Of a stretch of DNA of 64,000 nt, positions 1 to 13,651 are shown one piece after another. Both the position numbers and the translations under genes were made by a program. Each line of letters opens with the position of its first letter. The stretch's first letter is position 1. The notes beneath the pieces were generated by a model that saw only the letters and a program-made list of their open reading frames with translations, had not been told where the DNA came from and searched no databases. This stretch comes from Escherichia coli (GTDB taxonomy: Bacteria > Pseudomonadota > Gammaproteobacteria > Enterobacterales > Enterobacteriaceae), in NCBI RefSeq assembly GCF_003334255.1, contig NZ_QOWU01000013.1. The stretch is one strand, 5' to 3'.

Positions 1-109
<109 letters not shown>

Positions 110-139
110 TCAAATTTAAATGATCAGATCAGTATACCG

Positions 140-1462
140 TTATTCGCTGATACGGCGATAGACAGTTGGTGTGCTTTCCGGTGCTTTATCGGCAAGTTTA
201 ATTGCCGCTTTCACCGCTTTCGCCGCTTCCTGCCAGTTGTTTTCGTCTTTCGCGTGGATAACCGCCAGCGGACGCTGACCGTCTACCTGGTCGCCCAGAC
301 GCGCCATATCAGTAAAGCCGACGCTGTAATCGATGGTGTCAGATGCCTGACGGCGTCCGCCGCCCATTGCAACCACTGCCATCCCCAGCGCGCGGGTATC
401 CATTTCACTGACAAAACCTTCGGTATCAGCATAGACTGCTTTCGTCAGCATCGCTGTCGGCAGATACTTCGCGTAGTTCTCAACGAAGTCGGTCGGGCCT
501 TTTTGTGCCGCTACCATACGACCAAAGACTTCTGCCGCTTTACCGTTGTCCAGCACCGCCTGCAATTTCGCGCGCGCTTCGGCGTCATCTTTCGCCAGTT
601 TGCCGGAGATCAGCATCTCCACGCACAGCGCCATCGTGACATCAAACAGACGCGGGTTACGATATTCACCCGTCAGGAACTGCACCGCTTCACGAACTTC
701 AACCGCGTTACCTGCACTGGAGGCCAGTACCTGATTCATGTCGGTGAGCAGCGCGGTGGTGCGCACGCCAGCGCCGTTAGCCACGCCAACAATCGCTTCG
801 GCAAGGGCTTCAGAGAGTTCGTAGGTCGGCATAAACGCGCCGCTACCCACTTTCACGTCCATCACCAGCGCGTCCAGACCTTCCGCAAGTTTCTTCGCCA
901 GAATAGAGGCGGTGATCAGCGGGATGGAGTCCACGGTTGCGGTAATATCACGGGTCGCGTAGAAACGTTTATCAGCCGGAGCCAGTGAACTGGTCTGACC
1001 GATAATCGCCACGCCGACGTCTTTAATAATTTCGCGGAAACGGTTGTCATCCGGGAAAATGTCGAAGCCAGGGATGGATTCCAGTTTGTCGAGCGTACCG
1101 CCAGTATGACCGAGGCCGCGACCAGAGATCATCGGAATATAGCCGCCGCAGGCTGCGACCATCGGCCCCAACATCAGCGAAGTCACATCGCCGACGCCAC
1201 CGGTGGAGTGTTTATCAACAATCGGGCCATTCAGATGCAGGCTTTTCCAGTCGAGAACGGTTCCTGAATCTCGCATCGCCATGGTCAGCGAGACACGCTC
1301 AGGCATTGTCATATCGTGGAAGAAAATGGTCATCGCGAGGGCGGCAATCTGCCCTTCGGAGATAGTGTTGTCGCGAATACCGTTGATAAAGAAACGAATT
1401 TCTTCATCGCTCAGCGCATGACCATCACGTTTTTTACGAATAATTTCTTGTGCGAGAAACAA
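140..1462 (-). CDS. deoA: Thymidine phosphorylase
   Basis: 440-aa ORF; start [29 protein letters not shown] and length match E. coli DeoA as recalled; operon context deoC-deoA-deoB. Confidence 0.95.
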
Positions 1463-1499
1463 GGTAACCTCCCGAGGAAAAGAGTATGAGGCGGCTTTT

Positions 1500-1574
1500 G
1501 CCGGATGCGTCTACGCCTTATCCGGCCTACGGGTAGATACGTCTCGTAGGCCTGATAAGCGCAGCGCATCAGGC
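1500..1574. repeat. REP (repetitive extragenic palindrome) pair between deoA and deoC
   Basis: gccggatgcgtctacgccttatccggcctac followed by inverted gtaggcctgataagcgcagcgcatcaggc; canonical E. coli REP sequences. Confidence 0.6.
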
Positions 1575-1588
1575 GTAAAGCATCTTAC

Positions 1589-2368
1589 TTAGTAGCTGCT
1601 GGCGCTCTTACCGTCGCCGTGACCCAGCGCTTTCAGCAGGCTTGCCAGCAGGCTGGAAGCGCCAAAGCGGTAGTGACGCGCATCTGCCCAGTCAGCACCG
1701 AACAGTTCATCTGCAATGGCGAGATATTTCTGCGCATCTTCCGCAGTACGCACGCCGCCCGCCGGTTTGAAACCAACGGTTTTTTCTACGCCCATATCAC
1801 GGATCACTTCCATCATGATGCGCGCGCTTTCCGGCGTCGCGTTCACAGCCACTTTACCGGTAGAGGTTTTGATGAAGTCCGCACCCGCTTTGATGGAGAT
1901 TTCAGACGCTTTACGGATCAGCGCTTCGTCTTTCAGTTCGCCGGTTTCGATGATCACTTTCAGCAGTACATTCGCTGCCGCGCAAGCCTCTTTACAGGCT
2001 TTCACCAGGTCAAAACCAACCTGCTCGTTACCCGCCATCAGCGCGCGGTACGGGAACACAACGTCAACTTCATCAGCACCGTAGGCGATTGCCGCACGGG
2101 TTTCTGCCAGCGCGATGTCGATGTCGTCGTTACCGTGTGGGAAGTTGGTTACCGTAGCGATACGGATTTCCGGGGTGCCCTGCTCTTTCAGAGTTTTGCG
2201 AGCAATCGGGATAAAGCGAGGATAGATACAGATAGCGGCGGTATTGCCGACCGGAGTTTTGGCCTGATGACACAGGGCGATCACTTTCTCGTCGGTGTCG
2301 TCGTCATTCAGGGTGGTCAGGTCCATCAATTTCAGTGCACGCAGGCTGCTTGCTTTCAGATCAGTCAT
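1589..2368 (-). CDS. deoC: Deoxyribose-phosphate aldolase
   Basis: ORF track 1589..2392; start trimmed to the internal ATG at 2368 ([20 protein letters not shown]), giving 259 aa; AGGAGAA ribosome-binding site upstream. Confidence 0.95.
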
Positions 2369-2412
2369 TTCATTCTCCTGGCTTGTCGCCAATAAAATTC
2401 ACCTTGCGAGTT

Positions 2413-2428
2413 TGTTAGTATTCTAACA
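2413..2428 (-). promoter_or_regulatory. DeoR operator O2 (overlaps deo P2 promoter)
   Basis: tgttagtattctaaca, a 16-bp palindrome close to the DeoR operator consensus TGTTAGAA-TTCTAACA; 45 bp upstream of the deoC start. Confidence 0.7.
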
Positions 2429-2442
2429 TCTACTCCGCAACA

Positions 2443-2464
2443 CACTTCGATACACATCACAATT
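2443..2464 (-). promoter_or_regulatory. CRP site (CytR/CRP-regulated deo P2 region)
   Basis: Minus strand reads AATTGTGATGTGTATCGAAGTG; TGTGA-N6-TCGAA resembles the CRP consensus TGTGA-N6-TCACA; position fits deo P2. Confidence 0.55.
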
Positions 2465-2625
2465 AAGGAAATCTACTTACAAGTTTGCATCACTGTAATG
2501 CGATCTGGTTCAAATAATTCACTTTCAAATGAATGCGTCAGTGGTGGCAAACGCATCAGGATCAAAGTGAACATCACGAAACTTCTTACAATGGCGCATC
2601 ACCTTCGGCATAAAAGGAAAAGAAG

Positions 2626-4176
2626 ATGCCCACTTCTCATGAAAATGCACTGCAACAACGTTGCCAGCAAATTGTCACCAGCCCAGTGCTTAGCCCGGAG
2701 CAGAAGCGCCATTTTCTGGCACTGGAAGCAGAAAACAATCTGCCTTACCCACAGCTTCCTGCCGAAGCCCGCCGCGCGCTGGATGAAGGTGTAATCTGCG
2801 ATATGTTTGAAGGTCATGCGCCGTACAAACCGCGCTATGTCTTACCCGATTACGCCCGTTTTCTGGCGAACGGTTCCGAATGGCTGGAGCTGGAAGGCGC
2901 GAAAGATCTTGATGACGCACTCTCTCTGCTGACCATTCTTTACCACCACGTACCGTCGGTCACATCGATGCCGGTCTACCTGGGGCAACTGGATGCGTTG
3001 TTGCAACCGTATGTTAGAATTCTAACACAAGACGAGATCGATGTTCGAATAAAACGTTTCTGGCGTTACCTCGACAGAACCCTGCCAGACGCCTTTATGC
3101 ACGCCAATATCGGCCCGTCTGATTCGCCCATTACCCGCGCGATCTTACGTGCAGATGCAGAGTTGAAGCAGGTTTCACCGAACCTGACCTTTATCTACGA
3201 TCCTGAAATCACCCCTGATGACCTGCTGCTGGAAGTGGCGAAGAACATCTGTGAATGTAGCAAACCGCACATCGCCAACGGTCCGGTGCATGATAAAATT
3301 TTCACAAAAGGGGGCTACGGGATTGTGAGCTGTTACAACTCACTGCCGCTGGCGGGTGGTGGCAGCACGCTGGTACGCCTTAACCTGAAAGCCATTGCCG
3401 AGCGCAGCGAATCGCTGGATGACTTCTTTACGCGCACTCTACCGCACTACTGCCAGCAGCAGATCGCCATCATCGATGCGCGGTGTGAATTCCTCTATCA
3501 ACAATCACACTTCTTTGAGAATAGCTTCCTGGTGAAAGAAGGGCTGATTAACCCTGAACGTTTTGTGCCAATGTTTGGCATGTATGGGCTGGCGGAAGCG
3601 GTTAACTTGCTGTGTGAAAAAGAAGGGATTGCCGCGCGCTACGGTAAAGAAGCCGCCGCAAATGAAGTAGGTTATCGCATCAGCGCGCAACTGGCGGAGT
3701 TTGTCGCCAATACCCCCGTGAAATATGGCTGGCAAAAACGCGCCATGTTACACGCACAGTCGGGGATCAGTTCCGATATCGGCACCACGCCGGGCGCGCG
3801 TTTGCCGTATGGCGATGAGCCAGATCCGATCACCCATCTGCAAACTGTCGCCCCGCATCATGCTTATTATTATTCCGGCATCAGCGACATTCTGACGCTC
3901 GACGAAACCATCAAACGTAACCCGCAGGCACTGGTACAGCTTTGCCTCGGTGCCTTTAAAGCCGGAATGCGTGAATTTACCGCCAATGTCAGCGGTAACG
4001 ATCTGGTTCGCGTTACCGGTTATATGGTGCGTTTGTCGGATTTAGAAAAATATCGCGCCGAAGGTTCACGCACCAACACCACCTGGCTGGGCGAAGAAGC
4101 CGCACGCAACACTCGTATTCTGGAACGCCAGCCGCGCGTGATAAGCCATGAACAGCAGATGCGCTTTAGTCAGTAA
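2626..4176 (+). CDS. yjjI: Glycyl-radical enzyme family protein, function unknown
   Basis: 516-aa ORF with a C-terminal glycyl-radical-like motif ([12 protein letters not shown]); AAGGAAAAG ribosome-binding site before the ATG; followed by the activase gene yjjW. Confidence 0.85.
3012..3027 (-). promoter_or_regulatory. DeoR operator O1 (deo P1 promoter), inside the yjjI coding sequence
   Basis: Perfect 16-bp palindrome tgttagaattctaaca exactly 599 bp from O2, the canonical O1-O2 spacing. Confidence 0.7.
3291..3306 (-). promoter_or_regulatory. Candidate DeoR upstream operator OE
   Basis: tgataaaattttcaca, a degenerate operator-like palindrome (about 12/16 match) 279 bp beyond O1, fitting the reported roughly 278-bp OE position. 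Confidence 0.4.
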
Positions 4177-5011
4177 GATTATCCCCTTCTCCTGCGTTGA
4201 CGGGCCAGGCAGTCGTCTGGCTCTGTTTTTGCAGGGCTGCAATCTGCGCTGCAAAAACTGTCACAATCCGTGGACGATGGGACGTTGCAATGACTGTGGG
4301 GAGTGCGTGCCACAGTGTCCGCATCAGGCGTTGCAGATTGTTGACGGCAAAGTGGTGTGGAACGCTGTGGTTTGCGAGCAGTGTGATACCTGCCTGAAGA
4401 GGTGTCCGCAACATGCCACGCCCATGGCGCAATCCATGAGCGTGGACGAAGTGCTTAGCCATGTCCGCAAAGCAGTGCTGTTTATCGAAGGGATAACGGT
4501 GAGTGGCGGTGAAGCCACGACCCAGCTGCCGTTTGTGGTGGCGCTGTTTACTGCTATCAAAAACGATCCGCAACTGCGCCATCTCACCTGTCTGGTGGAC
4601 AGTAACGGCATGTTGAGCGAAACCGGCTGGGAAAAATTGCTCCCGGTGTGCGACGGCGCAATGCTCGATCTCAAAGCGTGGGGGAGCGAATGTCATCAAC
4701 AACTCACCGGACGCGATAATCAGCAGATTAAGCGCAGCATCTATTTGCTGGCAGAGCGCGGCAAGCTGGCGGAACTGCGTTTGCTGGTGATCCCTGGCCA
4801 GGTGGATTATTTGCAACACATCGAAGAACTGGCGGCGTTTATCAAGGGACTCGGCGATGTTCCGGTACGCCTGAACGCGTTTCATGCCCACGGCGTGTAT
4901 GGCGAGGCGCAAAGCTGGGCGAGCGCCACGCCGGAAGACGTTGAGCCGTTGGCTGATGCGTTAAAGGTGCGCGGGGTGAGCCGGTTGATATTTCCGGCGC
5001 TCTATTTGTGA
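4148..5011 (+). CDS. yjjW: Glycyl-radical enzyme activating protein (radical SAM, with extra ferredoxin-like Cys clusters)
   Basis: 287 aa; radical SAM motif CNLRCKNC near the N-terminus plus [12 protein letters not shown] and [12 protein letters not shown] clusters; start overlaps the yjjI 3' end by 29 nt. Confidence 0.85.
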
Positions 5012-5012
5012 C

Positions 5013-5436
5013 ATGCCGGATACGGCCTACGGTTCGGCACAGACTTGTAGGCCTGATAAGACGCGTCAAGCGTCGCATCAGGCATTGTGCGCCAACTGCC
5101 GGATGCGGCGCGAACGCCTTATCCGGCCTACGGTTCGGCACAAACCTGTAGGCATGATAAGACGCGACAAGCGTCGCATCAGGCATTATGCGCCGACTGC
5201 CGGATGCGGCGTGAACGCCTTATCCGGCCTACGGTTCGGCACAGACTTGTAGGCATGATAAGACGCGACAAGCGTCGCATCAGGCATTGTGCGCCAACTG
5301 CCGGATGCGGCGTGAACGCCTTATCCGGCCTACGGTTCGGCACAAACCTGTAGGCATGATAAGACGCGTTAAGCGTCGCATCAGGCATTGTGCGCCAACT
5401 GCCGGATGCGGCGTGAACGCCTTATCCGGCCTACGG
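5013..5436. repeat. BIME/REP tandem array, about 101-bp unit x 4 plus a partial unit
   Basis: gccggatgcggcg recurs at 5098, 5199, 5300 and 5401 (period 101 bp); each unit holds two inverted REP copies; ORFs predicted here on both strands are repeat artefacts. Confidence 0.8.
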
Positions 5437-6210
5437 CACGTTAAACAACGTATACGTGTTATTAAGCAACGCTTGCGCAATCTCATCCGCCGGTTCCCGG
5501 CGCAACTCGCAAAGCACGGCAAACACACGGGCAGCCTGCTCCGGGCGGTTAGGCTGCCCCTGAAAACCGTTGAGCGGCATATCCGGCGCGTCGGTTTCCA
5601 GCAATAACGATGCCAGCGGTAATTTTGCGATGACATCGCGGGTTTTACTGGCGCGTGGATAGGTGATAGTACCGCCTACGCCAATTTTGTAGCCCAGCTG
5701 TACAAACCGTTCGGCCTGTTGCAGGCTGCCGGAAAAACCGTGAACCACGCCAGTGCGCGGTAAATCGTGGCGTTTAAGATGCATCGCCAGTTTGTCGTGC
5801 GTGCGCCGTGAATGCAGGATCACCGGCAGATCGTAGCGTTTCGCCAGTTTCAGTTGTTCGTCGAGTAACCACTGCTGCCTCTCAAATTGCGGATCGTCGC
5901 CAAAGAGATCCAGACCGATCTCCCCCACCGCCACCACCTTCGCCGGACGCCTTTCCAGCGCCTGCTGTAGCTGCTCAAGAGACACATCGCTATGTTTTTC
6001 CAACATACCAGGATGCAAGCCCAATGCGGCATACAGCGGTTGATAATTTTCCGCTAATGCCAACACACGGGCAAAATTTTCCGCCTCTGTTGCCGGAACA
6101 ATGATCTTGCCTACGCCCGCTTGTGCCGCGCGTTGCAGGCTGGCCTCTTCATCGCCACTAAACGGCGGGAAATCAAAATGGCAGTGGGTGTCGATAAAAC
6201 GGCAAATCAA
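5431..6210 (-). CDS. yjjV: TatD-family metal-dependent DNase
   Basis: 259 aa; N-terminus MICRFIDTHCHFDFPPF carries the TatD-type HxH metal-binding motif; K-12 synteny. Confidence 0.85.
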   Translation of the reverse strand: MICRFIDTHCHFDFPPFSGDEEASLQRAAQAGVGKIIVPATEAENFARVLALAENYQPLYAALGLHPGMLEKHSDVSLEQLQQALERRPAKVVAVGEIGLDLFGDDPQFERQQWLLDEQLKLAKRYDLPVILHSRRTHDKLAMHLKRHDLPRTGVVHGFSGSLQQAERFVQLGYKIGVGGTITYPRASKTRDVIAKLPLASLLLETDAPDMPLNGFQGQPNRPEQAARVFAVLCELRREPADEIAQALLNNTYTLFNVP

Positions 6211-7280
6211 GCCAGATCCTCATTGTTAAATGTCGGGTCGTTCGCCTGCGGAGCGTCGCTCACTTCGGCAACCAGCGTATCGTTGGCGACTGGCGCAGGC
6301 GGAATGACAATCGATTCCGGCGTCACCACTGGCACCAGATGGCGGGTAAGCGGCGCTTTTTCAGTTAATAGCTTGCCAACCGTGGCGAGGAAATAACGAC
6401 CGCATAAACGCCCAAGTTTATAGTCTTCACGCAGCGCCGGAATCCGACTGCCAAGCGCGATACTATGTAATGGCTTCGGCGGATAAATTTCGAATATCCG
6501 CAGCTTGCCCGGTGGTTTCTCAATAAATTGCTGAATGTCACGATAGCTGGTTTCATGATGCTGCACCAGATTGACCAGCGGCTGCAGGCTACTGTCACCC
6601 AGCCAGCGTTCCATGCGTTTGAACCACTGCGGCGTGTAGTACATTTGTGACGGCACAGTGCGAATGACGACCAACGTTTTAGCGCCCTGCCTTGCCGCCT
6701 CTTTAACCGGAATCGCATCACTGATCCCGCCATCCAGGTAGTTAATGCCTTCCAGCGACACTCCGCTACGATAAAAGCCAGGTATCGCACTGGAGGCGCG
6801 AATCACATCCAGCCAGTTTTGTTTGGTTGGTAAAAAGTAATTCGGCGCGTAGTCATCCTGACGACAGGCGCACATATAAAACGATTTGCCGCTGTCAAAC
6901 AACCGCGCGGCGGTATCCATTTGCAACGGCATCTGGCTTGCAGTGGCCTCCACCAGCCAGTCGAGATCGATAAGATTTCCTCCACGGACAAAGCGCAATG
7001 GATCGAAAAATTCGCGTTTTGTGGTATAGCGCATGATGACTTTGCGCGCGTAACCGGGCTGATTGCAGATAAACGCCGAGAGGTTCTGCGCCCCGGCAGA
7101 TGTGCCGAGATAAAGATCGAAAGGATTAAACTGCGCGCGCATAAACTCATCCAGCACGCCAGCCGTGAAAATTCCACGCTGTCCGCCGCCTTCGCACACC
7201 AGAGCTATTCGTCCAGGCTGGAACGGCCTTAGCGACAACGGCGCAATATTACCAAGCGTTACAGGTATTCGCTGCCCCAC
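6207..7280 (-). CDS. yjjU: Patatin-like phospholipase family protein
   Basis: ORF track 6207..7316; start set to the GTG at 7280 (MGQRIPVTL..., 357 aa) after an AGGAAGG ribosome-binding site; GGGQRG and GTSAG patatin motifs present. Confidence 0.8.
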   Translation of the reverse strand: MGQRIPVTLGNIAPLSLRPFQPGRIALVCEGGGQRGIFTAGVLDEFMRAQFNPFDLYLGTSAGAQNLSAFICNQPGYARKVIMRYTTKREFFDPLRFVRGGNLIDLDWLVEATASQMPLQMDTAARLFDSGKSFYMCACRQDDYAPNYFLPTKQNWLDVIRASSAIPGFYRSGVSLEGINYLDGGISDAIPVKEAARQGAKTLVVIRTVPSQMYYTPQWFKRMERWLGDSSLQPLVNLVQHHETSYRDIQQFIEKPPGKLRIFEIYPPKPLHSIALGSRIPALREDYKLGRLCGRYFLATVGKLLTEKAPLTRHLVPVVTPESIVIPPAPVANDTLVAEVSDAPQANDPTFNNEDLA

Positions 7281-7340
7281 CTCTGCCTTCCTGTTTTTGT
7301 TGTGAAAGAATGACAAAGTAACGCAATTTATTATTCGCTA

Positions 7341-7370
7341 AAACCGCAAAAGCCAGTCCGCTGGACTGGC
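7341..7370 (-). terminator. Rho-independent terminator downstream of ytjA
   Basis: 8-bp stem gccagtcc/ggactggc (7352..7370); on the minus-strand transcript it is followed by a U-rich tract (UUUUGCGGUUUU). Confidence 0.55.
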
Positions 7371-7401
7371 TTTGGATAAAATTTTCTTAATGGTCTGAAA
7401 T

Positions 7402-7563
7402 CTAGGGTCGTTTTCGGCCCATGAACAAACTCACCAGGAACAGAATAATCCCGACGACAAAGACAATTTTAGCTGCGCCTGCAGCGGTACCGGCCAGACC
7501 ACCAAACCCAAGTGCGGCGGCGATTAACGCGATAACCAGAAATATGATGCCCCAACGAAACAT
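7402..7563 (-). CDS. ytjA: Small DUF1328-type membrane protein
   Basis: 53 aa from the ATG at 7563 ([20 protein letters not shown]...) with AAGGAG ribosome-binding site; the longer ORF-track start lacks one. Confidence 0.8.
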
Positions 7564-7689
7564 AAGCGTCTCCTTTACCATAGTTAATGTCACCGCTTGA
7601 TATGAGCGTGAAAATCACTCAATGCGATATTTTTAGTGTGGTGCACATCGCGCCTCCCGACAAAGTTCGGGAGGACGAATTACGACGAA

Positions 7690-8295
7690 TTACTTAGTTT
7701 TCAGATCATTTTTAACGCTTTTCACACCATCTACCGCTTTGGCGATACTTTCAGCACGGTCACTTTGTGCCTGAGAATCGACGGTACCGGAGAGCTGAAC
7801 CACGCCGTCGGTGGTTTCAACTTTCACATGACGGGAAGGGACGATATCGTCCGCCAGCAGTTTGGCTTTGATTTCACTGGTGGTGGCGGTGTCACCCGCG
7901 TAGCCCTTCACCGAGCCTTCTTTAGCGTCGCGAACGTGCAGTTTGTCGCTGACAGAGGTCACCCCTTCAACGCCTTTCGCCACTTTCACTGCCTCTTCGG
8001 CCTGGGCCTGGCTTTCAACGAAACCGCTCAGGGTCACGACTTTTTGATCGGTTTTTACAGAGATATCGGTGCTCTTGATGTTGTCATGATCCACCAGGGC
8101 CGCCTTCACTTTCGCGGTGATGGCGCTGTCATCCATGAAATTACCGACTTTATTCATAGAGCTATCGACTTTTTGCCCTGCGCTTTCATTGGTAGTCTGC
8201 GCGTTGTTTTCCGCGTAGGCAGAGCCGGTCGCGACGGCAGAGGTCAACATTACAGCCAGCAGAGTTTTCGAAATCTTCAGTCTTGTCATAGTCAT
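7690..8295 (-). CDS. osmY: Periplasmic osmotically inducible protein OsmY (two BON domains)
   Basis: 201 aa from the ATG at 8295 ([28 protein letters not shown] signal peptide); sequence recognised as OsmY. Confidence 0.9.
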
Positions 8296-8687
8296 CGATT
8301 TATTCCTGTATGTTTGCTCGTAATTTGAGCCTGGCAACACGAGGTTGCATTGCTGAATAGGGAGAGACTTCACCCTCTACAGAAGTCAATGGTCGCCATC
8401 ACAAAAGCGATGAGTGATGAATAACGACCATTACAGCCTCTGAATCAGTTATTAATATCGGTAGAATGACAATCGACGGCTTTAGATACTGATATCTACG
8501 CATTGAACGGTATTTAACGCCGTCAGAAATGTCATCACTTTGTTAAATATAGATCACAATTTTGAAACCGCTCGGGATATCAGCGAAAACATAAGCAAAA
8601 GTGAATGTTTTAAGAACATTCCGTAAGCGGCTAATAAGGAAGGGAAATTGACAGGGCGCAGCGGCTACCGCGCCCTGGAGGCAAGAA
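8296..8687 (-). promoter_or_regulatory. osmY promoter/leader region
   Basis: 390-bp non-coding interval between the prfC 3' end and osmY; osmY is known to be stationary-phase/osmotically regulated; individual sites not resolved here. Confidence 0.4.
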
Positions 8688-10277
8688 TTAATGCTCGCGG
8701 GTCTGGTGGAACTGAACGTCCGGATAACGTTCCTGTGCCAGGCGCAGGTTGACCATGCTGGTAGCGATGTAAGCGAGGTTATCGCCGCCATCAAGCGCCA
8801 GTTGGCTTTCGTTCTTACGCTTGAACTCTTCGAATTTCTTCGCGTCTGCACATTCTACCCAGCGGGCAGTGGCAACGTTGACTGACTCATACACTGCTTC
8901 AACGTTGTATTCGCTCTTCAGGCGCGCTACCACCACATCAAACTGCAGCACACCAACTGCACCAACGATCAGATCGTTGTTGGAGATTGGACGGAACACC
9001 TGCACCGCGCCCTCTTCGGAAAGCTGTACCAGCCCTTTGAGCAGCTGTTTTTGCTTCAGCGGATCTTTCAGGCGGATACGACGGAACAGTTCTGGTGCGA
9101 AGTTCGGAATACCGGTGAACTTCATCATCTCACCCTGGGTAAAGGTGTCGCCGATCTGAATGGTGCCGTGGTTGTGCAGGCCGAGGATATCGCCCGGATA
9201 CGCTTCTTCAACGTGCGAACGGTCACCCGCCATAAAGGTCAGCGCGTCGGAGATCACCACATCTTTCGCAGTGCGCACCTGGCGCAGTTTCATGCCTTTT
9301 TCATATTTACCGGACACCACACGCATAAACGCCACGCGGTCGCGGTGTTTCGGGTCCATGTTGGCCTGAATTTTAAATACGAAGCCGGTAAATTTATCTT
9401 CGCTCGCTTCTACGGTACGGGTATCAGTCTGACGCGGCATCGGCGCAGGTGCCCACTCCACCAGGCCATCCAACATATGATCGACGCCGAAGTTACCCAG
9501 CGCAGTACCGAAGAATACCGGAGTGATTTCGCCCGCAAGGAACAGCTCTTTGTCGAACTCGTTAGACGCGCCTTTCACCAGTTCCAGTTCGTCACGCAGC
9601 TGCTGTGCCAGATCTTCACCAACCGCAGCATCGAGATCCGGGTTATTCAGCCCTTTAACAATGCGGACTTCCTGAATGGTGTGGCCTTTACCGCTCTGAT
9701 AGAGATAGGTTTCGTCTTTATAAAGGTGGTAAACGCCTTTAAACAGCTTGCCGCAGCCAATCGGCCAGGTGATCGGCGCACAGCCGATTTTCAGCTCGTT
9801 CTCAACTTCATCGAGCAGCTCCATCGGGTCGCGGATATCACGGTCAAGTTTGTTCATAAAGGTGAGGATCGGCGTGTCGCGCAGACGGGTAACTTCCATC
9901 AGCTTACGGGTACGATCTTCAACACCTTTTGCGGCGTCGATAACCATCAGGCAGCAGTCCACCGCCGTCAGGGTACGATAGGTATCTTCCGAGAAGTCTT
10001 CGTGCCCCGGGGTGTCGAGCAGGTTAACCAGGCAATCGTGATACGGAAACTGCATCACAGACGTAGTAATGGAGATCCCACGCTGCTTTTCCATCTCCAT
10101 CCAGTCCGACTTAGCGTGCTGGTTGGAACCACGGCCTTTTACTGTACCGGCGGTCTGAATGGCCTGTCCGAACAGCAGCACCTTCTCGGTGATGGTAGTC
10201 TTACCGGCGTCCGGGTGAGAAATAATGGCAAAAGTGCGGCGCTTCGCCACCTCTTGCAAATAAGGAGACAACGTCAT
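8688..10277 (-). CDS. prfC: Peptide chain release factor 3 (GTPase)
   Basis: 529 aa from the ATG at 10277 ([29 protein letters not shown]1 motif). Confidence 0.95.
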
Positions 10278-10367
10278 AATTCTTTCTTCTTGAGTAAGCG
10301 GCATCGCGCCGCGCTTGTTGAAAACGAAAAATTGCGGCTATTTTACCCATCAACGGGGGGGAGGCAA

Positions 10368-11045
10368 TCAGTGTTTACACAGGAGCTGCTCCAGTTCGTG
10401 CAACGAAGAAACGGTCCAGGTGGGCGCGATGCCTTCTGGTTGCTCGCGATGGTGTGCATTCAGCCAGCAGGTCGCAAGCCCGGCGTTGATGCCACCGAGA
10501 ATATCGGACTCGGCAGTGTCGCCAACCATCAGCACGCGTGAACGGTCAGGATTGCCCGCCTGTTCCAGCGCATAATCGAAAATTTTCTTATTCGGTTTGG
10601 CAACGCCAACTTCTTCGGAAATCACCAGCAAATCGAAGTAATCACGCAGGCCCGTGCGTTCCAGACGTACCTGTTGCAAGGCACTAAAGCCGTTGGTGAT
10701 GATGCCGATTTTGGCGTTGCCACGAATGGCGTTAAGCAGAGAAACCGCGCCCGGCAGCGGCGTGCAGATTTCCGCCATCGCATTAATAAAGGCTTCGTTG
10801 AGTTTACCTGGCTCGACGTTCAGCCGTTCGGCCCAGCTCTCAAACCGCCCGTGCTGAAGCTGTAATGAAGTGATCGCGCCGTTTTGATAATCCACCCACA
10901 GTGGCTTGTTAACGGCCTGATAGTCCTGAAAATCTTCAGCGGTAAAGGTGACGCTGTAATCAAGAAACATCCGCTGCAGGCCGGTGAATGAGTCAAAGGT
11001 AAACAGCGTTTCATCGGCATCAAAGAAAATCCAGTCCCACTTCAT
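10368..11045 (-). CDS. yjjG: HAD-family pyrimidine 5'-nucleotidase
   Basis: 225 aa; N-terminal [11 protein letters not shown] motif I (DxD); K-12 synteny next to rimI. Confidence 0.9.
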
Positions 11046-11059
11046 TATTCCACCTTGTA

Positions 11060-11506
11060 TTACATACTGATTGGCAACGCCATGATGATGGCGTCTTCGC
11101 GACCGTCCGTGGTGGGGTAGTAATTGCGGCGAATCGTCGCCTCGTTAAAGCCTAAACTTTCGTACAGGGCAATGGCGGCAGCGTTTGAAGCACGGACTTC
11201 CAGCCATAGTGTCGCCACGCCGCGTTTTTCCAGTTCGTCGATCAGATGTTCCAGCAGCGCCCTTCCCAATCCCTGACGCTGATAGTCAGGATCGACCGCA
11301 ATATTGAACAATGTAGCTTCATCCAGCACCACTTGCGTAATCGCAAACGCCGCCATTTTGCCGTTTTGCGTTAACTGAAAGTTGAGATAACGCTCGCCCT
11401 GGTTGCTGGCAAACGTTTTTTCACTCCACGGAAAGGCGTGGGCGCGTTGTTCAATGTGGTAAGCCGCCGGTAAATCAGTCGTTTCGAGGGAAGAAATCGT
11501 GTTCAT
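11060..11506 (-). CDS. rimI: Ribosomal protein S18 alanine N-acetyltransferase
   Basis: 148 aa GNAT acetyltransferase with [10 protein letters not shown] acetyl-CoA motif; overlaps the holD 3' end. Confidence 0.9.
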
Positions 11507-11888
11507 ATGTGCAAATTTGTTGCCATAACGCGGCGCGTGCCGTTGGGTTTGCCCGTAAATCGGTGAGCGCCGGTGATGCCACCTGAGCGCCTTCCAGTGA
11601 TAGCGGTTCGTCAGTACCCAACCGCCAACTGTTGCAGTGACTGCCTTGCGGCAGCATCGCGATTTTTTCTGGCGTCAGTTGCAGCACCTGGTCGGGGCTG
11701 ACGGTTAATGCGCGCAGAACATCGCTCACTAAAGGATCAGTCAGGGCGGGAAGATCGTTTGCCACCATCACCAGACGGACGTGTGCCGGGATCGCAATGG
11801 CAATCTCCCCCTGCAACGCGCCAGGGCGACGCAGCGACCACTGGGTAATGCCCAGTTGCTGTAACTGCCAGTCTCGTCGGGATGTCAT
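11475..11888 (-). CDS. holD: DNA polymerase III psi subunit
   Basis: 137 aa (MTSRRDWQLQQLGITQWSLRRPGALQGEIAIAIP...); classic holD-rimI overlap. Confidence 0.9.
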   Translation of the reverse strand: MTSRRDWQLQQLGITQWSLRRPGALQGEIAIAIPAHVRLVMVANDLPALTDPLVSDVLRALTVSPDQVLQLTPEKIAMLPQGSHCNSWRLGTDEPLSLEGAQVASPALTDLRANPTARAALWQQICTYEHDFFPRND

Positions 11889-11990
11889 AGCGAATCGCTC
11901 CTGTTGTCAGGGGCGCAAATATAGCAAATTCGTCGATACCGCGCCAACATATGGCTATAATCGCCGCCAGTATCAATTGAGGAGCATTCC

Positions 11991-13022
11991 ATGTCTGCAT
12001 TTACCCCGGCAAGTGAAGTCTTGCTGCGTCACAGTGATGATTTCGAACAAAGCCGTATTCTGTTTGCCGGAGACTTACAGGATGACCTGCCCGCGCGTTT
12101 AGATACCGCGGCCAGCCGTGCTCATACCCAGCAATTCCACCACTGGCAGGTATTAAGCCGCCAGATGGGGGATAACGCCCGTTTCAGTCTGGTCGCCACG
12201 GCGGATGACGTCGCAGATTGCGATACGCTGATTTACTACTGGCCGAAGAACAAACCGGAAGCCCAGTTCCAGTTGATGAATTTACTTTCTCTGCTGCCAG
12301 TGGGGACAGATATTTTTGTCGTTGGCGAGAACCGCAGCGGCGTGCGCAGCGCCGAGCAGATGCTGGCAGATTATGCGCCGTTGAATAAAGTCGACAGCGC
12401 TCGTCGCTGTGGCCTCTATTTTGGTCGTCTGGAAAAACAGCCGGTATTTGATGCGGAGAAATTCTGGGGCGAATACAGCGTCGATGGCCTGACGGTCAAA
12501 ACGCTGCCTGGCGTGTTTAGCCGCGACGGTCTGGATGTCGGTAGCCAGTTGCTGCTCTCGACGTTAACTCCGCACACGAAAGGTAAAGTGCTGGATGTCG
12601 GCTGTGGCGCGGGCGTGCTTTCAGTTGCCTTTGCGCGCCATTCGCCGAAAATTCGTCTCACCTTGTGCGATGTCTCTGCCCCGGCGGTAGAAGCCAGCCG
12701 CGCAACACTTGCGGCCAACGGTGTTGAAGGTGAAGTCTTTGCCAGCAACGTCTTTTCCGAGGTGAAAGGTCGTTTTGATATGATCATCTCCAACCCGCCG
12801 TTCCACGATGGGATGCAAACCAGCCTGGATGCGGCGCAAACGCTGATTCGCGGTGCGGTGCGTCATCTTAATAGCGGCGGCGAGCTGCGAATTGTAGCGA
12901 ACGCCTTCCTGCCTTATCCGGACGTGCTGGATGAGACATTTGGCTTCCACGAAGTGATCGCGCAAACAGGGCGCTTCAAGGTGTATCGCGCCATTATGAC
13001 CCGCCAGGCGAAGAAAGGTTAA
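11991..13022 (+). CDS. rsmC: 16S rRNA m2G1207 methyltransferase
   Basis: 343 aa; SAM-binding [12 protein letters not shown] and catalytic IISNPPFH motifs. Confidence 0.9.
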
Positions 13023-13040
13023 TTATCTCGCCGAATACCG

Positions 13041-13133
<93 letters not shown>

Positions 13134-13220
13134 ATCTGCCCCCGCATGCATACCAAACCTGCACGCTAGTTTCCTGATGGACATTTTTCCAGCAATTACA
13201 CCTCTGTCGATAATTAACTA

Positions 13221-13248
13221 TTGACGAAAAGCTGAAAACCACTAGAAT
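13221..13248 (+). promoter_or_regulatory. Sigma-70 promoter for the leucine tRNA gene
   Basis: -35 TTGACG (13221-26), 16-bp spacer, -10 TAGAAT (13243-48), GC-rich GCGCC discriminator, AT-rich upstream; about 40 bp before the tRNA. Confidence 0.6.
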
Positions 13249-13289
13249 GCGCCTCCGTGGTAGCAATTCTTTTTAAGAATTGATGGTAT

Positions 13290-13376
13290 GCGAAGGTGGC
13301 GGAATTGGTAGACGCGCTAGCTTCAGGTGTTAGTGTCCTTACGGACGTGGGGGTTCAAGTCCCCCCCCTCGCACCA
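13290..13376 (+). tRNA. leuV: tRNA-Leu (anticodon CAG), single copy
   Basis: 87-nt sequence GCGAAGGTGGCGGAATTGGTAGACGCGCTAGCTTCAGGTG...CCTCGCACCA with CAG anticodon, long variable arm and encoded CCA. Confidence 0.95.
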
Positions 13377-13414
13377 ATTATCTTTACTTCCTTTCTTGTT
13401 TCTTCCTTGATTTT

Positions 13415-13651
13415 TCATCCCTGATTCAAATTCATTATCATCAGCATGATGCCAGCAATAAGTGCCAGGCACGATGGTAGCAAAATGTAATGCCGCAACT
13501 GTTTGTGATACAGCATCATCGGCGTCAATACTAATCCCATCAGAATGACAATCCGCCACTGATCTGACGATAAATCCGCATACATCAGCCCTGCAATCAG
13601 CAATCCCGGCAGCAACACTCCCCAGCCACTGCCCAGCGTACGTTGCAACAT
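13415..13651 (-). CDS. yjjZ: Small membrane protein
   Basis: 78 aa from the ATG at 13651 (MLQRTLGSGWGVLLPGLLIAGLMY...); ORF track gives a longer 115-aa frame; divergent from fhuF. Confidence 0.7.
   Translation of the reverse strand: MLQRTLGSGWGVLLPGLLIAGLMYADLSSDQWRIVILMGLVLTPMMLYHKQLRHYILLPSCLALIAGIMLMIMNLNQG

Follow-up and report, generated by a model that had tools for sequence, protein, structure and literature searches.

The window, by which we mean the whole 64-kb stretch of Escherichia coli DNA that was analysed, contains exactly one tRNA gene. ARAGORN places this gene at 13290..13376 on the + strand, gives it a length of 87 nt and reads its anticodon, cag, at position 35; it is a tRNA-Leu(CAG). 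The Rfam model RF00005 also finds it: the match covers 13290..13373 and the full model (positions 1-71), and its score of 48.5 bits exceeds the gathering score of 29. ARAGORN and RF00005 together describe a cloverleaf with a long variable arm. There are no differences over the 87 nt between this gene and leuQ or leuV of K-12 MG1655, and the run of eight C residues in the T arm is intact.

The gene lies between rsmC and yjjZ and is convergent with the latter, which identifies the interval as the site of the leuQPV operon. A first-pass annotation had reported one 87-nt tRNA-Leu(CAG) gene here; ARAGORN and the list of open reading frames bear out its coordinates, its neighbours and the gene order. 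The operon is defined by three tandem genes with spacers of 28 and 34 nt, but the window holds one gene and no spacer. The parts of the locus are these:

11991..13022, + strand: rsmC (16S rRNA m2G1207 methyltransferase), an open reading frame of 343 aa, the upstream flank (annotation transfer from LR-33 and N18-04097)
13221..13248, + strand: predicted sigma-70 promoter of the leu tRNA operon (the ‘leuV’/leuQ promoter of K-12), from a scan; identical to K-12 upstream of leuQ
13249..13253, + strand: GCGCC, a GC-rich discriminator that separates the -10 hexamer from the transcription start (direct reading of the sequence)
13254..13289, + strand: 5' leader, about 34 nt from the inferred start; the native leuQ leader, identical to that of K-12
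13290..13376, + strand: tRNA-Leu(CAG), 87 nt, CCA encoded, 8-C run in the T arm (ARAGORN, Rfam, alignment)
13377..13414, + strand: 3' trailer, C/T-rich and without a hairpin terminator; the native leuV trailer, identical to K-12 downstream of leuV
13415..13651, - strand: yjjZ (DUF1435 protein), the convergent downstream flank (list of open reading frames; annotation transfer from N18-04097 and LR-33)

The names of the two flanking genes were transferred from LR-33 and N18-04097 because the flanks of these genomes are identical, or nearly so, to those of the window.

What promoter serves this gene? The candidate, TTGACG-16-TAGAAT, matches the consensus at 10 of 12 positions and ranks first among the promoter-like sites of a 1-kb region, in which the consensus scan found seven such sites against 1.8 expected from shuffles. 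The same hexamers and the GCGCC discriminator had been picked out at the first pass; the scan and the reading of the sequence agree with that choice, and K-12 has the same sequence upstream of leuQ. Indeed, the 135 bp 5' of the tRNA, the aligned part that includes this native promoter, are identical in the window and in K-12. GC-rich discriminators of stable-RNA promoters have a role in stringent and growth-rate control. The leuV promoter is cited as a FIS-activated stable-RNA promoter with an activity comparable to that of rrnB P1 (PMC3035224).

At the other end of the gene, a scan of the surrounding 1 kb found no intrinsic-terminator-like site on the + strand downstream of the tRNA. This agrees with published work, in which leuQPV has no recognizable Rho-independent terminator and is predicted to be Rho-dependent (PMC2190699). 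The zone of Rho-dependent termination presumably reaches into the convergent yjjZ. The - strand of the same 1 kb has two terminator-like sites. One of them (13134..13115) falls inside a REP-like palindromic pair at 13030..13140, between the rsmC stop codon and the leu promoter.

Comparison with the K-12 array

In K-12 MG1655 (NC_000913.3) the interval between rsmC and yjjZ is occupied by leuQ, leuP and leuV, three 87-nt tRNA-Leu(CAG) genes at 4606079..4606401. The first-pass annotation had given three copies for K-12, and its stated alternative, that K-12 might itself have a single copy, fails on this record. The K-12 array is 323 bp long, of which 62 bp are unique spacer. Its inter-tRNA spacer sequences, AAAACCACGTTGATATTGCTCGCACTGG and AACGAGGCGATATCAAAAAAAGTAAGATGACTGT, differ in length (28 versus 34 nt) and are unrelated in sequence; neither is kept in the window.

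How does the window differ from this array? In a five-way alignment it equals MG1655 minus exactly 236 bp, and the remainder is identical over the aligned 320 bp. The missing 236 bp are 115 + 121 bp, that is, two tRNA copies together with the 28-nt and the 34-nt spacer. The deletion thus spans whole repeat periods, leaving one intact 87-nt gene with untouched flanks, preceded by the leuQ leader and followed by the leuV trailer.

The three genes of the array are not all alike. leuQ equals leuV over all 87 bp, and these two are the only fully identical pair. In MG1655, DH10B and E2863 leuP has T at position 48, and the leuP of E2863 also has an extra SNP at position 26. The surviving copy of the window has C48 and is therefore of the leuQ/leuV type, not of the leuP type; a per-copy comparison found C48 in all 11 other single-copy loci examined. 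Set against leuQ-leuP-leuV of K-12 (tRNA-Leu1, b4370-b4368), the window shares the locus, promoter, leader, tRNA sequence and trailer, but has one gene and lacks both spacers and the leuP variant (T48).

Copy number among E. coli genomes

How common is the single-copy state? Three short queries, each specific to one junction, were run against 5,426 complete E. coli genomes. The single-copy query is a 167-nt leader-tRNA-trailer sequence, contiguous only if one copy is present, and was scored at a coverage of at least 80%. A 1.2-kb query was unreliable for copy number, as the flanking pieces of multi-copy genomes were sometimes joined. The single-copy junction was present in 425 of the 5,426 genomes (7.8%), the leuQ-leuP junction in 4,980 and the leuP-leuV junction in 4,985. 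On the assumption that each genome is either single-copy or has at least one of the two junctions, inclusion-exclusion gives at least three copies at the locus in about 4,960 genomes (91%), two in about 40 (0.7%) and one in 425 (7.8%). The matching places number 21,101 in total, which is off the prediction from this copy-number distribution by no more than 1.4%.

All 60 of the single-copy matches listed are single-piece, with one annotated tRNA-Leu. For 59 of these 60 the record has two matching places, the leuQPV locus and presumably leuT; the remaining record, 655 kb long, has a single one. At two places per record, these single-copy genomes have no compensating tRNA-Leu(CAG) copy elsewhere. 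Three clonal series (the AVS wastewater set, Ec-050 and 2020S05-013) agree on a single copy. The first-pass annotation had treated the single gene as notable. The state itself is real, but it is shared by about 8% of complete genomes and is less notable than had been implied. We conclude that single-copy leuQPV is an ordinary, common and recurrent copy-number polymorphism, of a kind already known and to be found in public genomes.

Do the single-copy alleles share one origin? We compared the window with 13 other loci (14 in total) over 2.5 kb of flank, the array itself being left out. Single-copy alleles were found on at least six flank haplotypes: K-12-like, PapRG-06-5, TUM9803/P276M, 2020S05-013-17, APEC E18005 and NissleGFP. 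Among the 14 loci they are interleaved with multi-copy alleles and do not form one clade. The public single-copy alleles of N18-04097, MC1061, ME8067, P276M and NissleGFP_pZE21 share the 167-nt junction and the gene neighbourhood with the window, but the flank haplotypes vary, with as many as about 80 differences over 2.5 kb, a sign of independent origins.

Conversely, near-identical flanks carry different copy numbers. APEC E18005, with one copy, and E2863, with three, have 7 differences in the flank. Within the K-12-like haplotype the window (one copy), LR-33 (two copies) and MG1655/DH10B (three copies) differ at 0 to 1 sites per 2.5 kb, the 2.5-kb flanks of LR-33 being identical to those of the window. 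Comparison with other genomes, which had been proposed at the first pass, thus returned both the 425 genomes that share the single-copy junction and a closest relative, LR-33, with two copies. Two-copy arrays of both kinds were seen, one with the 34-nt spacer (LR-33) and one with the 28-nt spacer (O157:H7 TR01); leuP T48 is kept in neither.

Copy number varies among laboratory stocks as well. The sequenced stock of MC1061 (NZ_CP195014.1) has one copy while its derivative DH10B (NC_010473.1) has three. Either the array collapsed in the MC1061 stock on a laboratory time-scale or the MC1061 assembly is wrong. ME8067 and OV2 have one copy each. MC1061 and OV2 come from one sequencing project, with adjacent accessions, and a shared pipeline artefact is conceivable for these two single copies. 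The single copy of OV2 (NZ_CP195020.1, 891..976) is 86 nt long, with a run of seven C in the T arm in place of eight. This C run is a published indel hotspot of leuP/Q/V/T (PMC8510543); the shorter run of OV2 may reflect either a true indel that inactivates the gene or an error in sequencing the homopolymer.

TOP10 was considered as a second MC1061 descendant for the comparison of copies, and was dropped in favour of DH10B because its match falls in a jumbled stretch. Positions 1..3209 of the TOP10 record (NZ_CP080620.1) hold tRNA-Lys, tRNA-Gly and tRNA-Val genes, two RtT sRNAs, two tRNA-Leu genes and RHS fragments in an arrangement unlike the K-12 locus, and look like a misassembled region.

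Might the window itself come from a laboratory derivative of K-12? Over bases 1-13377 two positions separate the window from MG1655, and its match to MC1061 is almost perfect over bases 1-25000. Beyond about 24.4 kb, however, the window departs from MC1061 and K-12: the stretch from 24.4 to 31.5 kb is 99.5% identical to K-12, and in the hsd/mcr ‘immigration control’ region, at about 31.5-40 kb, the K-12 counterpart is absent. This divergence and the non-K-12 hsd/mcr region led us to reject a laboratory derivative, and the window appears, from its sequence, to belong to a natural K-12-like strain. The genome nearest to it overall in the collection is that of LR-33, which was isolated from human faeces; the two show 9 mismatches over 33 kb. 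Bases 28001-53000, the hsd/mcr region included, are about 100% identical to S88, ATCC 11775, G1/2, LR-33 and N18-04097. Such identity to phylogenetically scattered strains suggests horizontal exchange of this region.

In the annotations of LR-33 and N18-04097 the hsd/mcr region contains a brnT/brnA toxin-antitoxin pair and restriction genes. Elsewhere in the window, the yjjV-yjjW intergenic region holds, at 5023..5436, 4.1 tandem copies of a 101-bp unit, 95% alike, the units being REP/BIME-like palindromes; this tandem array is also present in MG1655, LR-33 and N18-04097.

Origin of the single copy

By what route could three genes have become one? When direct repeats recombine unequally or slip, the characteristic product is a deletion of whole units in which a single hybrid repeat survives intact. 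We consider it very probable, from the sequences compared here, that leuQPV was cut from three genes to one by a two-unit deletion of 236 bp, with recombination or slippage between leuQ and leuV as the likeliest event. Unequal homologous recombination or replication slippage between these first and last copies would produce one normal tRNA gene behind the native leuQ promoter and leader and in front of the native leuV trailer. RecA-dependent recombination and RecA-independent slippage give the same product. Recombination between the copies had already been put forward at the first pass, and is now supported by the in-register deletion and by the occurrence of one-, two- and three-copy states on near-identical haplotypes.

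A direct passage from three copies to one would be favoured over passages from three to two. Pairings that involve leuP are interrupted at position 48, and in E2863 at position 26 as well. For repeats of this size, recombination becomes steeply more efficient as the unbroken stretch of identity grows longer. Since leuQ and leuV offer a perfect 87 bp while the leuP pairings are interrupted, three-to-one events should outnumber three-to-two events, and we propose this as the reason for the roughly tenfold excess of single-copy over two-copy genomes. Against the deletion from three genes to one stands LR-33, the closest relative in the collection, which has two copies and not one. The operon lies head-on to replication and is highly expressed (PMC8510543); both properties may, by way of speculation, add to the instability of the array.

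Unequal crossing-over or slippage is known to alter the copy number of tandem genes in bacterial tRNA and rRNA gene sets. A parallel is the flexible tRNA gene set of Pseudomonas fluorescens SBW25 (PMC10954465), where dosage likewise changes by repeat recombination and the state varies within the species. The change at the E. coli locus differs in two respects: it is a deletion, short and local, between repeats of 87 bp and involves no large segmental duplication, and it is a loss that is hard to revert once a single copy is reached.

Has selection favoured the shorter array? The collapse might have arisen by recombination and then been kept at about 8% by an advantage of fewer tRNA-Leu(CAG) genes in niches where growth is slow or nutrients are scarce. 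An MG1655 strain that lacks the entire operon (ΔleuVPQ) has been built; in the study that includes it, strains without redundant tRNA genes generally paid a cost in rich media, and in poor media the loss was neutral or beneficial (PMC9981150). In evolved lines, indels in leuP/Q/V/T went with larger colony expansion (bioRxiv 10.1101/355404). The tenfold excess of one copy over two points the same way, but is explained equally well by the 87-bp identity of leuQ and leuV as against the interrupted leuP pairs; moreover, three copies are still the large majority. We regard selected reduction as possible, though unlikely. A bolder version makes recurrent collapse a one-way dosage switch: the head-on, very highly transcribed tandem array would supply a high rate of deletion, and selection would keep the product at about 8% because half the gene dosage for the tRNA that reads CUG pays off in slow-growth, nutrient-limited niches. 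This version we hold to be a little more doubtful still.

Might the strain truly have two or three copies, the 87-bp repeats having been collapsed and the two spacers dropped in assembly? Collapse of this kind would yield exactly the sequence of the window. LR-33, the nearest relative, combines identical flanks with two copies, and the TOP10 record is an example of a ‘complete’ assembly that is apparently wrong around tRNA repeats. On the other hand, a K-12 array of 323 bp with 62 bp of unique spacer would be spanned by any long read and by most paired short reads, and unresolved repeats tend to break contigs, not to delete unique sequence. The same junction, furthermore, occurs in 425 independently assembled complete genomes, concordant clonal series included. 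An artefact is improbable on these grounds.

That a single copy is ancestral in this lineage, the arrays of K-12 and most E. coli being expansions by duplication, is scarcely credible: tandem duplication could in principle build an array, with nothing specific in its favour, but about 91% of the genomes have both junctions, the three-copy arrays read (MG1655, DH10B and E2863) share two distinct spacers in the same order, these spacers are unrelated and hence the array is not from a recent simple duplication, the flanks of the window are identical to, or one SNP from, those of two- and three-copy genomes, and the single-copy alleles examined fall on six flank backgrounds across the 14 loci.

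Expression and gene dosage

If leuQ and leuV recombined or slipped as we suppose, what would the remaining gene contribute? Because its promoter, leader and trailer are native, the single gene should be expressed and matured normally. Transcripts of leuQPV are separated and 5'-matured by RNase P, for which RNase E is not needed, and PNPase and RNase II take off the 3' tails (PMC2190699). A single gene would give a monocistronic transcript, for which cleavage between tRNAs would be unneeded; the 5' end would be cut by RNase P, and the 3' end trimmed by exonucleases after Rho-dependent termination.

The dosage of tRNA-Leu(CAG) genes is expected, from the gene count, to fall from four to two, the gene in the window and leuT. 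CUG is the commonest codon of E. coli (bioRxiv 10.1101/355404), and the leuQPV unit is absent from a published table of essential tRNA transcription units (PMC11480407). We infer an effect of the collapse on tRNA level and growth. tRNA-Leu(CAG) gene dosage varies two-fold among E. coli strains, K-12 laboratory stocks included, and a difference of this size might matter for heterologous expression and for growth in rich medium.

The allele occurs in hundreds of public genomes and its mechanism is textbook repeat-mediated deletion, so that it has little weight as a discovery. The copy-number figures add a small data point to studies of what redundant tRNA genes cost and what they bring. For pipelines of annotation and strain comparison, one or two copies at the leuQPV site should not be flagged as an error. 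The locus may vary upwards too: some genomes have up to 10 places matching the tRNA-Leu(CAG) query, and eight places lie on plasmids, which implies that arrays of more than three copies, or mobile copies, exist.
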